From a virus (taxonomy: Duplodnaviria > Heunggongvirae > Uroviricota > Caudoviricetes), in IMG/VR virus record IMGVR_UViG_2874920711_000012, positions 1 to 33,220 of that record: a DNA stretch of 33,220 bases; one strand, given 5' to 3'. Position 1 is the first letter of the stretch. Each line of letters opens with the position of its first letter. The notes beneath the pieces were generated by a model that ran no database searches, was not told the DNA's origin, and was given only the letters and a program-made list of their open reading frames with translations. Of this stretch, positions 21,473 to 24,597 are shown piece by piece. The translations under genes and the position numbers were made by a program.

Positions 21473-21651
21473 TCATTTAGGAATAATAGAATGCAATTCG
21501 TGACTCACCTGGATTTCATAGTGTTTCAATAGTTCTCCGATGTTAATTCCTACTACCTTACGAACTGCGCCGAGGGAGAAGTTAAGCTCCTCAATGCCCG
21601 GCCGATCTGGCGTTGAATTCATATAGTGTCGGCACGCACGGACAATTGACT
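21473..21651 (-). pseudogene. 3' fragment of the HNH-nuclease-domain gene, separated from its 5' part by IS911
   Basis: With IS911 and one ACT copy removed, the reading frame from 22899 continues in frame to the stop at 21473 (…[34 protein letters not shown]…HELHSIIPK). Confidence 0.6.
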
Positions 21652-21659
21652 TGAAGTGG

Positions 21660-22545
21660 TCAACAAAAACTGGCCACCGAGTTAGAGTTTTTCCAGTATC
21701 GATTTTCCGATTCGTTTGGGGTAACCCACCGTTATATTCGTGCGGTCTTAGTGCGCTGTAATATCCAACGATATAGTCCGTTATGGCGTGAGCTGCCTCG
21801 CTGAAGCTTACGTAACCCACCACCGGCATCCATTCGTTCTTCAGACTCCTGAAGAAGCGTTCCATTGGGCTGTTATCCCAGCAGTTTCCGCGCCGGCTCA
21901 TACTCTGTCTGATCTGGTATCGCCACAATAACTGCCGGAACTGCCTGCTCGTATAATGACTGCCCTGATCGCTGTGGAACATCACCCCGCCGGGCTTACC
22001 ACGGGTTTCCCATGCCATTTCCAGCGCTTTCATGGTGAGCCTGCTGTCCGGCGAGAACGACATGGCCCAGCCCACTGGTTTTCTTGCGAACAGGTCGAGA
22101 ACAACGGCGAGGTACGCCCAGCGCTTACCCGTCCAGATATAGGTCACATCACCGCACCACACCTGATTTGGCTCGGTCACGGCGAACTGCCTTTCAAGGT
22201 AGTTAGGGATAGCAACATGTTCATGACCACCACGTTTATACCGGTGAGTCGGCTGCTGACAGCTAACCAGCCCCAGCTCTTTCATGAGCCTGCCAGCAAG
22301 CCAGCGTCCCATCTGGTAGCCTCTCCGGGTTGCCATTGTGGCGATGCTTCTTGCTCCGGCCGAACCATGGCTGATGCCATGTAGCTCAAGTACCTGACTG
22401 CGTAATACAGCCCGTCTGCCGTCTGGTTTTTCAGGACGGTTTTTCCAGTATCTGTAGCTGCTGCGATGAACCCGAACACTTGGCAGAGTGTGACCACAGG
22501 ATAATGCGCTCTGAGTTTCCCGATTATCGAGAACTGTTCAGGGAG
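21660..22545 (-). CDS. IS911 orfB (DDE transposase), with apparent frameshifts
   Basis: [42 protein letters not shown]… matches IS911 OrfB as recalled; a short C-run near 21740 makes the ORF track read through the IS end to 21473; another break near 22380. Confidence 0.7.
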
Positions 22546-22826
22546 TCTGACATCAAGAGCGCGGTAGCCTTTTTTAATATTTCATTCTCCATTTCAATGC
22601 GTTGTAGCTTTTTCCTCAGCTTACGTATTTCGATTTGTTCTGGTGTTATCGGAGAGGCTTTTGGTGTTTTGCCCTGACGCTCATCACGCAGTTGTTTGAC
22701 CCATCTTGTCATTGTGGAAAGGCCAACATCCATAGCTTTGGCGGCATCTGCCACCGTGTATTTCTGGTCAACAACCAGTTGAGCGGATTCGCGTTTAAAC
22801 TCTGCGCTAAAATTTCTTTTTTTCAT
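22524..22826 (-). CDS. IS911 orfA
   Basis: [57 protein letters not shown]…; A AAA AAG slippery motif near its 3' end. Confidence 0.85.
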
Positions 22827-22898
22827 TGGAGCACCTGTGTTGTTCTGAGGTGAGCATATCACCTCTGTTCAGGTGGCCAAATTCAGTGTGCCACTTCA

Positions 22899-23475
22899 AC
22901 TCGACGATCAACGATAGCGGAGACTCAGGTGCAATCTCGGAGCGAATCGCCGTAAGAGAGAGTCGGAGCTCCTTCAAAGAATCCGAGACTCGTGCTGGAT
23001 CCTCTTGAGCATATGGCAGATAAAGAGAACTCTTGTCTTCCAATAAATGGATCAACCGCAGAGCAATTTTCTCGTCTGGGCGATGCGATAGAAATTGAAA
23101 CATTAGCCTCTTTCCTCCCTCCAAGCACTCCTTCATTAGTGATTCGTGGTCACGTTTCCATTTTCGCAAATACTCGGCGGGGTAGCCCATACCGCCATTC
23201 TTATCAACTAAATCAGCACAAGCTCCGCACAACCATATAGCATTTTTTATGCTCTTCCGCTCTGTTTCTGACTGAGACATGTCATAGCGCGGTCCGCCAG
23301 GGCTCGCCGCGCAGATATGCGCCGCCTCACCCGTCTTGATAGAAAGATTTTCCGCCAATTGATCCGGGCCGATTGTTACCCTATGACAAGAGGGATTGCT
23401 ACAAATATATGTAGCGCGCTCTGCTACCTTACCTACAACGCTTGGAGGAAAGTTGTGCCTATTTGTCTTGGTCAT
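22899..23475 (-). pseudogene. 5' part of an HNH-nuclease-domain gene (~250 aa when rejoined), interrupted by IS911
   Basis: N-terminal region has CSNPSC, AAHICAASPGGPRY and NAIWLCGACADLV, an HNH-like arrangement; the ORF-track C-terminus beyond 22899 is IS911-derived. Confidence 0.6.
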
Positions 23476-23499
23476 AAAAGTTATGCTTCTTTGTTTTTT

Positions 23500-24597
23500 T
23501 CATCTATGTGGGGAGAATAAAATCATACTTTTTATATCTGATCCTAAATAGCTGCGCTTAATACCGCTACACTTTTGCCAGTCCATGTTTGCCTCCGGGA
23601 ATGGGCTGACGGTTTCCATAAAATGGCGAACTTTTTTCAACAGTTGCCACATTGAGCGGCACTGATGATTACGCGTTATTGTGTCGTGAAGTGCCTGCCA
23701 TAGCCGTTCAACATGATTCACCCATGGCGAGTAAACCGGCTGATAAATGACCCTGAACTTCGGGTTCTCCTTCAGCCAGCTCTGTGTTTCCCGGCTTTTG
23801 TGGATAATGTAGTTGTCCACGATCAGCGTGATGGTTTTCGCCCGACGGTATGTCGCTTTAAGCCGCTTCAGCAGGCTGATGAACAGCGCCGAACTTTTGC
23901 TGTTGCCGCCCACATAGCTGACTTTACCTGTCCCGCTGTGCAGCGCTCCGGCCAGATAATATTTTTCATTCTGTCCCGGCGTGACCACCCGTTTTTGCTG
24001 TCCGCGCAGTTGCCAGTCCGCACCGATTTTGGGATGAAGATGGATATCCACTTCATCTTCATAAAAGACCGGATGCTCTGCGCTGCATTCGTCCAGTGCT
24101 TTATGGATTGCTGCCATCTTTTCATCTTTATGCGGGTCACGGATACGCAGAGTTGGCGCAGCCCTTCGCCACACAATCCCCGCAGACGGCAACCAGCGGC
24201 GAACGGTTCCGGCATTTAACTGGCAACCGGTTATCTCATTGATTTTTATTGCCAGCAGTTCTGTACTCCAGCGTGAACGCTGGTAGACAAAGTCGCCGGG
24301 AGAATGTTTTACCAGCTCACGTAACAGTGTGCAGATATGCTCAAACGGCCAGCGACGGGCACGCCCGGCAGGTAATGATTTCAGTCCCTCAACACCCGAC
24401 TGCGTGAACCAGTTAATCCAGCGTCCAACAGAGGAACGGGCGCAGCAGAGCGTTCTGGCAACGTCGCTGACACGGTCGCCCCGGTGCAGCATCAGCATGG
24501 CAGTCAGTCTGCGGGCATAATTTTTATCGTGTGTTTTATGGATGGCTTTCTGCATCAGGCGTCGTTCGTCACGGGAAATTGGTGCTATGATCGGCAT
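23500..24597 (-). CDS. IS630 transposase (ORF as called runs past the IS end)
   Basis: MPIIAPISRDERRLMQKAIHKTHDKNYARRLTAMLMLHRGDRVSDVARTLCCARSSVGRW… matches IS630 transposase as recalled; the last ~15 codons lie outside the element. Confidence 0.85.
   Translation of the reverse strand: MPIIAPISRDERRLMQKAIHKTHDKNYARRLTAMLMLHRGDRVSDVARTLCCARSSVGRWINWFTQSGVEGLKSLPAGRARRWPFEHICTLLRELVKHSPGDFVYQRSRWSTELLAIKINEITGCQLNAGTVRRWLPSAGIVWRRAAPTLRIRDPHKDEKMAAIHKALDECSAEHPVFYEDEVDIHLHPKIGADWQLRGQQKRVVTPGQNEKYYLAGALHSGTGKVSYVGGNSKSSALFISLLKRLKATYRRAKTITLIVDNYIIHKSRETQSWLKENPKFRVIYQPVYSPWVNHVERLWQALHDTITRNHQCRSMWQLLKKVRHFMETVSPFPEANMDWQKCSGIKRSYLGSDIKSMILFSPHR

Follow-up and report, generated by a model that had tools for sequence, protein, structure and literature searches.

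The stretch of DNA analyzed here (the window) covers the 33,220 nucleotides of the IMG/VR virus record IMGVR_UViG_2874920711_000012, a member of the Caudoviricetes, and belongs to a P2-like prophage. Its cargo, located between a tail-fibre assembly gene and the tail-sheath gene FI, comprises three genes and four insertion sequences (IS): gene A, gene B and, convergent to gene B, a minus-strand gene that we term HNH-DUF6650 after the two domains of its product, and that is split by an IS911-type element. Sequence comparisons place the N-terminal half of the rejoined protein among the HNH nucleases of antiphage effectors, and identify its C-terminal half as DUF6650, the effector domain of the type VI Thoeris systems. 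We propose that the intact gene encodes a self-contained defence nuclease, whereas the copy in the window is dead.

Reconstruction of the split gene and its intact alleles

Once the IS911-type element is taken out together with one of the two ACT copies of its target duplication, minus-strand positions 23475..22899 and 21648..21473 join into an open frame of 250 aa followed by a stop codon. The rejoined protein differs from WP_059356353.1, an intact protein of E. coli (locus L002), solely by L141V, and from the intact 250-aa alleles of E. coli complete genomes by one to three residues. A 2.3-kb rebuild of the region free of IS elements aligns with 99.5–99.7% identity to 15 complete E. coli genomes, with at least 91% of the rebuild covered, and an annotated 250-aa gene is present at the matched place in those genomes. 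This near-identity to intact alleles indicates that the reconstruction is real and not a chance open frame. A prior sequence-only reading of this DNA had proposed an in-frame gene of about 250 aa once IS911 and one ACT are removed, with its last ~60 codons separated by the element, and both statements are borne out, the insertion lying after codon 192 and cutting off 58 codons. The join that it gave (23475-22899 to 21651-21473) is likewise in frame, but it retains both copies of ACT and so contains one extra codon. The intact homologues that it suggested looking for were recovered as the 250-aa alleles of the E. coli complete genomes, in surroundings of defence genes and prophages.

The copy in the window is an insertion-inactivated allele, that is, a recently inactivated pseudogene. 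A product of 222 aa can still be encoded, made up of residues 1–192 and a 30-aa tail contributed by IS911, which keeps the HNH domain while the most conserved DUF6650 motifs are gone. The HNH-DUF6650 gene cannot work in this window, because IS911 removes the last 58 codons with the most conserved motifs of DUF6650. Additionally, an IS630-type element cuts the gene off from the native DNA lying more than 69 bp upstream of its start.

The N-terminal half is an HNH domain of the immune-effector type

Scans of the rejoined protein against Pfam and NCBIfam gave no match, including none to any HNH or homing-endonuclease family. PADLOC profiles matched residues 5–119, the best being PDC-M68A (6.6e-24), followed by the CBASS endonuclease effector (2e-19), SAVED_HNH (2e-18) and SduA (3e-9). 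Run against the PDB, a profile made from 47 homologues found HNH domains of solved structure in the SPARHA HNH-APAZ effector (9om4, 2e-13) and in four Cap5 proteins, among them 8ysq (5e-9) and 7rwk (9e-9).

In the alignment of the family (47 sequences, with identity down to 45%), nine residues are invariant, namely C25, C30, H53, N78, C83, C86, D91, K92 and N93, and the motifs CSNPSC, AAHICAASPGGPRY and NAIWLCGAC are present in the rejoined protein on the invariant columns. H53 is the general-base histidine of the AHI motif and aligns with the AHI histidine of 9om4, 8ysq and 7rwk, while N78 and the four cysteines of the CCCC zinc knuckle (C25, C30, C83 and C86) align to the matching SPARHA and Cap5 positions. 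Mutation of the counterpart of H53 (H53A) abolishes the activity of MllaSPARHA, and AcaSPARHA is killed by N71A/H80A, in which the asparagine and the helix histidine are mutated together (PMC12738770). In the SPARHA and Cap5 HNH enzymes, sensor-driven tetramerisation or filament formation switches on a low-specificity cutting of dsDNA (PMC12738770). At the level of sequence these comparisons establish residues 1–119 as an HNH/His-Me finger domain of the Cap5/SPARHA/Shedu effector clade, and thereby confirm the HNH-type N-terminus that had been read from the motifs.

The C-terminal half is DUF6650

The region of ~150 aa at the C-terminus had been regarded as unknown, a view overturned by profile searches made in both directions. 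A precomputed PF20355.5 (DUF6650) label is carried by all of the homologues listed (120/120), and the intact allele is named 'DUF6650 family protein' by PGAP; the older Pfam model PF20355.3 gave one weak direct match only among the intact homologues. A profile built from the C-terminal fragments of the family alone, run against 1.84 billion representatives at E<=0.001, matched 742 proteins, many of which are stand-alone proteins of 150–180 aa that are covered from end to end. All five stand-alone proteins tested, as well as a 224-aa protein with an N-terminal extension, passed the Pfam gathering score of DUF6650. Reciprocally, a hidden Markov model (HMM) made from 13 stand-alone DUF6650 proteins matched the rejoined window protein with 84 bits over residues 132–250. 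The fused and stand-alone forms have in common the motifs LEDxxxLY, E..P..V..S...R..LT, ACR and LGxxR..G, and the columns E146, E158, S166, R171, C198, R199, R222, G226 and P249.

An AlphaFold2 monomer model, made on a relative with 95% identity (P0001), predicts a helical bundle for the C-terminal domain with a confidence score (pLDDT) of 83–94. When this model was compared with the PDB by Foldseek, nothing but generic four-helix bundles came up, none at E<=0.001. The only sequences retrieved by a word-indexed search with the C-terminal alignment were truncated gene calls from within the family. The profile matches in both directions, together with the common motifs, establish by homology that the C-terminal ~120–130 aa are DUF6650 (PF20355), a predicted four-helix domain that is the effector domain of ThsG.

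Other arrangements were seen as well. In P0267 (312 aa), a metagenomic representative, a TIR_2 domain at residues 11–143 and a C-terminal DUF6650 are found in one polypeptide, a layout that would combine the signal generator of type VI Thoeris with its effector domain in a single chain. P0177, P0232 and P0271 (348–364 aa) have an additional ~100–130 aa ahead of the HNH-DUF6650 core, for which Pfam gave no match. Certain stand-alone DUF6650 genes have a tightly coupled or overlapping upstream gene (66-512/509-985 in L086 and 1-504/515-1018 in L085). No TIR domain was detected by Pfam in the genes upstream of three stand-alone DUF6650 proteins, and the partners in L085 and L086 had no Pfam match, which suggests that DUF6650 partners other than TIR exist.

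Genomic contexts of the family

The neighborhoods of the gene were studied in 26 genome loci from Pseudomonadota, Bacteroidota, Cyanobacteriota, Bacillota, Acidobacteriota and other lineages, and in further contexts labelled with Pfam families, ~33 contexts in all. No conserved neighbor was found in the 26 loci, the sole protein common between them being HNH-DUF6650 itself. A Pfam scan of their 127 flanking proteins recovered integrases, transposases and SMC-like ATPases most frequently. TIR was not among the 25 Pfam families listed, which include all those found in two or more of the 127 flanking proteins, and no CD-NTase cyclase was among these neighbor families. Likewise, tblastn searches with TIR sequences of type V and type VI Thoeris against 350 kb of DNA (the 26 loci and the window) gave no significant match, and there was no TIR in the Pfam-labelled contexts. 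PADLOC recognized among the neighbors LmuA/LmuB, SduA, AriA, DrmC, Old, components of restriction-modification (RM) systems and several candidate systems. The defence-island setting proposed for the window gene is upheld by its position in a hotspot of P2-like prophages and by the defence genes that surround its relatives.

A paralogue from E. coli with 54% identity (P0068; loci L092–L095) stands alone on the opposite strand in the gap between antiterminator Q and the holin genes of lambdoid prophages. This gap is the position of the Shiga toxin gene in Stx phages and a classic moron site. Two coliphage lineages that are unrelated to each other have thus each acquired a member of the family as a moron. 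The comparisons of alignments and loci establish that both halves of the protein are under strong purifying selection, and that the family is widely distributed, mobile as cargo and found in defence-rich surroundings. Consistent with this setting, WP_059356353.1 is listed as a 'Predicted novel defense gene' by DefensePredictor, with a mean log-odds of 5.48 (PMC13092281).

Insertion sequences and decay of the window

The features of the locus are collected in Table 1. The two elements next to the HNH-DUF6650 gene, of the IS911 and IS630 types, both have terminal inverted repeats, a target duplication (3 bp in the former, TA within CTAG in the latter) and a precise empty site elsewhere. BLAST alignments of the intact loci to the window overlap by exactly 3 bp at IS911 and 2 bp at IS630, as target duplications predict. 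We take the first element to be IS911 from its OrfA and inverted repeat sequences, and that at the left edge of the cargo to be IS2 from its terminal repeats; elements of the IS630 type target TA within CTAG.

Table 1. Features of the cargo region of the window, with coordinates as positions in the 33,220-nt stretch
Feature	Position	Strand	Remarks
5' part of HNH-DUF6650 gene	22899..23475	minus	codons 1-192 + 1 nt; open reading frame/translation
HNH domain	~codons 1-119 (23119-23475)	minus	PADLOC residues 5-119; PDB sequence matches residues 10-120
DUF6650, first part	from ~codon 127, within 22899..23475	minus	
3' part of HNH-DUF6650 gene	21473..21648	minus	codons 193-250 + stop; motifs ACRHYMN, LGAVRK
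IS911-type element (IS3 family)	21652..22898, 1247 bp	minus	TGAAGTGG... terminal inverted repeats
ACT target duplication of IS911-type element	21649-21651 and 22899-22901		direct repeat
IS630-type element	23547..24698, 1152 bp	minus	TA at 23545-46 and 24699-700; empty site restored = CTAG
Native DNA left between HNH-DUF6650 ATG and duplicated TA of IS630	23476..23544, 69 bp	minus	
IS2-type element	16776..18105, 1330 bp	not assigned	5-bp duplication CCTGC; left edge of cassette
IS10-like element (IS4 family)	18956..20255, 1300 bp	not assigned	9-bp duplication CCCTCCGGG; between genes A and B
Gene A	18180..18863	+	homologue of WP_000141343.1 (227 aa); pseudogene
Gene B	20526..21311	+	261 aa, intact; 1 residue from WP_061089765.1 (DS-29, 'HEP3', HEPN-like)

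The transposase frame of IS911 (21473-22336, minus strand) continues past the end of the element and, without a change of frame, through the final 58 codons of the split gene, forming a 287-aa chimera. The chimeric peptide is found with the identical junction in a record of Shigella dysenteriae (P0141), which suggests that the window most likely derives from that species. Shigella dysenteriae is known for its IS expansion.

The transposase frame of IS630 (23500-24597, minus strand; 365 aa) has no internal stop, runs 45 nt into the flank and ends at 23500, 25 nt before the ATG of the HNH-DUF6650 gene and in the same orientation. No sigma-70-like promoter was found by a promoter scan upstream of the gene in the intact intergenic region of L001. 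The sequence-only reading was right that IS630 lies upstream and is co-oriented, although the spacing is 69 bp and not 72. It had further supposed that read-through from the transposase could drive the gene: the orientation fits and the frame does exit the element, but IS911 breaks the gene regardless. As the gene is dead through IS911, this idea is moot and without consequence in the window.

Compared to the intact prophage of E. coli cM2a (L001), the 3.4-kb cargo block of the window has received four IS elements, which lie within ~8 kb. As gene A is frameshifted and four IS elements have been inserted, the window represents a decaying P2-like prophage, and the loss of the HNH-DUF6650 gene is one sign of this decay among several. 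Another feature consistent with a decaying prophage is the P2-type tail-sheath gene FI, which is broken into at least two frames (24994-25140 and 25134-25943 on the plus strand), with more breaks downstream.

The mobile cassette and its other genes

The three genes form a 3.4-kb cassette that is found with 99.4% identity at two unrelated sites (window 16314-24801; L001 4657-8099; L002 4655-8099). Of the 15 E. coli genomes, 14 carry it not in a P2-like prophage but in an integrative Ag43/GTPase island, at its variable end, where one copy directly adjoins a type I RM system and DarTG. Gene B is the sole gene of the three that is still intact in the window, and Pfam and NCBIfam scans of its product gave no match. 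Its near-identical homologue WP_061089765.1 was cloned alone as 'HEP3', protecting by ~6 logs against Bas60, 5 against T4 and 3.7 against Candy (PMC13092281), and was named DS-29, a validated single-gene defence system (DefensePredictor, Science 2026; PMC13092281). Gene B belongs to the same mobile cassette and has no part in the function of the HNH gene. Gene A is broken by two 1-nt deletions, near 18267 and 18787. Its homologue WP_000141343.1 has an N-terminal hydrophobic helix and no Pfam match, and is a predicted defence gene of DefensePredictor outside the tested set (PMC13092281).

Comparison with known defence systems

Operons of a TIR and a DUF6650 gene were defined as type VI Thoeris in December 2025; upon infection the TIR protein makes 2' cyclic ADP-ribose (2'cADPR), which arrests the growth of cells that bear the system (bioRxiv 10.64898/2025.12.03.692087). 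In that work an AlphaFold3 model of the effector ThsG gave a ring of six subunits whose pockets are positively charged; the authors reported that ThsG resembles no known domain, and left the toxicity of versions without transmembrane (TM) helices unexplained. All three tested TIR proteins that produce 2'cADPR pair with DUF6650 effectors, and type VI systems occur in E. coli strains; the tables of the preprint list effectors as 'DUF6650' or 'DUF6650 and TM' only, and none with HNH (bioRxiv 10.64898/2025.12.03.692087). The window family resembles ThsG in having the same Pfam family, PF20355, with its conserved motifs over the C-terminal ~120 residues, in its occurrence in mobile elements and defence contexts of E. 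coli, and in the joining of this module to a variable output, TM in ThsG and HNH here. It differs from ThsG in the lack of an adjacent TIR (ThsB), in bearing an N-terminal HNH domain instead of TM helices or nothing, and in a DUF6650 that is shorter at its start, by ~26 positions, than the stand-alone form; any likeness in ligand or oligomer would be predicted from the common domain. Of the hallmarks of a type VI Thoeris system that were looked for in the sequences, the DUF6650 effector domain is present and a neighboring TIR was not found.

With Cap5 of CBASS the family has in common an N-terminal HNH domain of the same subfamily by profile and a C-terminal regulatory domain behind it, and by analogy it is expected to follow the same logic, in which sensor-driven oligomerisation leads to non-specific cleavage of dsDNA. 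Unlike Cap5, its regulatory domain is DUF6650 and not SAVED, it has no CD-NTase neighbor, and its length is 250 against ~385 aa; it also has Ala or Ser in place of the second catalytic histidine, and a full CCCC zinc site. The PADLOC and PDB matches end at about residue 120, and the SAVED domain and CD-NTase that define Cap5 are both missing. The nearest solved HNH domain, that of the SPARHA HNH-APAZ effector (9om4, E=2e-13; PMC12738770), has the same CxxxxC...GE.AHI...GGPR...N..LC layout with the catalytic His53; however, the window protein has neither an APAZ domain nor a short Argonaute partner, so that its activation cannot be driven by guide RNA and target DNA. The PADLOC candidate PDC-M68 resembles the family in its M68A component, the best PADLOC match (6.6e-24) over the HNH domain, and in its similar size (a model of 253 positions); only profile positions 5–113 are matched, indicating that the C-terminal halves differ, and the M68B partner lies beside one of the 26 relatives and is absent in the window.

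A parallel to a DUF6650 protein that functions without a TIR partner is offered by DS-27 (SMEK-DUF6650), a validated single-gene defence system of E. coli for which its authors reported a C-terminal DUF6650 by HHpred at 0.88 (PMC13092281). We did not reproduce this assignment: hhalign with the family profile gave a probability of 0.1 and the stand-alone DUF6650 HMM 3.9 bits, so that the parallel rests on the HHpred result of the authors. DS-29, the immediate neighbor in the cassette, is HEPN-like and unrelated to HNH-DUF6650. The family is also distinct from the homing endonucleases, as its genes are free-standing, lie on the opposite strand and occupy moron sites of prophages and islands.

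A DUF6650-gated nuclease as the favored explanation

We favor, with a probability of about 0.6, the view that the intact gene encodes a single-gene antiphage DNase gated by DUF6650, that the copy in the window is insertion-inactivated, and that the module travels as cargo of prophages and islands. In such a self-contained defence nuclease, which we infer from the two domains and their settings, DUF6650 would be the gate and HNH the blade. DUF6650 would act as a regulatory and oligomerising module, the HNH domain would be inactive at rest, and upon infection a trigger would alter its assembly. This trigger might most plausibly be a small phosphate-rich ligand held on the conserved surface of Arg171, Arg199 and Arg222, or alternatively a phage protein. 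The altered assembly would bring the HNH domains into a dimer of dimers, as activates Cap5 and SPARHA, and the outcome would be non-specific DNA cleavage and abortive infection. As no partner enzyme is encoded alongside, the protein should either act by itself or respond to a signal whose source lies elsewhere; only in the latter case could 2'cADPR be the ligand.

Several observations weigh against this explanation. The second catalytic histidine of the HNH domain (H80 of AcaSPARHA, at Asn+9) is Ala or Ser at position 87 in every member of the family. Hence the catalytic residues expected of an HNH nuclease are found only in part: H53, N78 and the zinc cysteines are in place, but this histidine is not. 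Metal binding would have to come from the invariant D91 or N93, one turn further along, and the replacement may be tolerated, because the solved Cap5 protein 8ysq also has no histidine there, with Gly at the position aligned to residue 87. Judged from these alignments, the HNH domain is likely to be catalytically competent, although the fold may instead have a non-catalytic role in DNA binding. Relative to stand-alone DUF6650, the fused domain is without ~26 positions at its start (the G.S.P.FG.SW segment), and therefore its ring assembly or ligand binding may differ from those of ThsG. The HNH half of the AlphaFold2 model has a low confidence (pLDDT 43–72). WP_059356353.1 was outside the units that were assayed with DefensePredictor, and its listing is a prediction only (PMC13092281). 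Finally, the gene is not always solitary: in a Firmicute lineage (L099–L102 and L015) it lies between a UvrD-type helicase gene and a PD-(D/E)XK gene in a same-strand array, with gaps of 4 and 12 nt to them, and here HNH-DUF6650 may be one component of a multi-gene system.

An alternative that retains the nuclease is that it represents an orphan effector of type VI Thoeris, which senses 2'cADPR or a close ADP-ribose (ADPR)-derived signal made in trans by a TIR protein elsewhere, with HNH replacing the TM output. The homology of its C-terminal DUF6650, in which the conserved Arg, Glu and Ser columns are kept, is in line with this, as are the consistent pairing of the tested 2'cADPR-producing TIR proteins with DUF6650, the occurrence of type VI systems in E. 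coli strains, and the TIR-DUF6650 fusion P0267, which points to a tight functional link of both domains. Yet there is no TIR within ~2–6 kb in the ~33 contexts and no TIR match in the 33-kb window, immune effectors are normally transferred together with their signal generator, and ~26 N-terminal positions of stand-alone DUF6650 have no counterpart in the fusion, making an orphan effector unlikely. The related idea of a TIR-less 'eavesdropping' receptor-nuclease, in which a DUF6650 ring binds 2'cADPR, or another ADPR-derived or phage-made nucleotide, from elsewhere and thereby triggers DNA destruction, is of similarly low probability. In another alternative, the whole 3.4-kb cassette of A, B (DS-29) and HNH-DUF6650 might be a three-gene system in which HEPN-like and HNH enzymes cooperate, given that the block moves together at 99.4% identity between the P2-like prophage and the unrelated Ag43/GTPase island, and that all three genes are predicted as defence genes by DefensePredictor. 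This is most improbable, as gene B cloned by itself, as a single transcription unit, reduces T4 and Bas60 by up to 5–6 logs, the HNH gene runs convergently towards B, and a gap of 354 bp lies between A and B. Moreover, no homologue of A or B lies beside HNH-DUF6650 in 26 other genomes, and the E. coli paralogue P0068 is alone in its lambdoid prophage. We therefore rejected the three-gene system, because B acts alone and A and B are not found beside the relatives.

It is very unlikely that the protein is an ordinary HNH enzyme outside immunity, such as a phage homing endonuclease or a solitary type II or type IV restriction nuclease. HNH domains are common in such enzymes, some neighbors are type II methyltransferases, the remote homology given by DefensePredictor is to the UniRef50 cluster 'RM_Type_II REases HNH endonuclease', with 35% of the protein covered, and there is a marginal match to phrog_740 'HNH endonuclease' (E=0.009). 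However, the absence of any Pfam or NCBIfam HNH or homing-endonuclease match, best matches to the HNH domains of immune effectors, the lack of a conserved methyltransferase partner and a location outside any gene, intron or intein, on the opposite strand in moron positions, all speak against it, and an invariant DUF6650 half would have no role in such an enzyme. The concern that intact homologues might be plain homing endonucleases is accordingly set aside, phrog_740 being the only match of that kind and the sites being those of morons and islands. A catalytically dead HNH fold, acting through DNA binding or through the assembly of the DUF6650 ring alone, as was proposed for ThsG without TM, would explain the loss of the second catalytic histidine in all members, and stand-alone DUF6650 proteins are toxic once activated even without a recognizable enzymatic domain. 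Against this, the strict invariance of His53, Asn78, Asp91, Lys92, Asn93 and the four zinc cysteines suggests a maintained active site, and the same histidine is missing at the aligned position of 8ysq; we regard a dead fold as improbable.

Implications for the DUF6650 family

In the literature searched we found no description of the combination of HNH and DUF6650; what is added here is the identity of the C-terminal domain, its connection with type VI Thoeris systems and the recognition of the validated DS-29 as a neighbor. DUF6650 was linked to immunity only recently, by the preprint of December 2025. Its fusion to a known killing domain, with no TIR to be seen, argues that it is a regulatory, sensor or assembly module and not the toxic part, and indicates that it is also used outside of Thoeris operons. 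The fusion furthermore provides DNA cleavage as a tractable readout for the ligand of DUF6650. The copy in the window by itself reflects ordinary genome decay, and the family is, as judged from its sequences, probably a variant of a known effector logic. The 3.4-kb cassette with DS-29 hops between the P2 hotspot and a chromosomal island. If the eavesdropping reading were true, DUF6650 would be a general and portable sensor of cyclic ADPR, on a par with SAVED or CARF, and prophages would carry effectors that respond to Thoeris-type signals without carrying the synthase.

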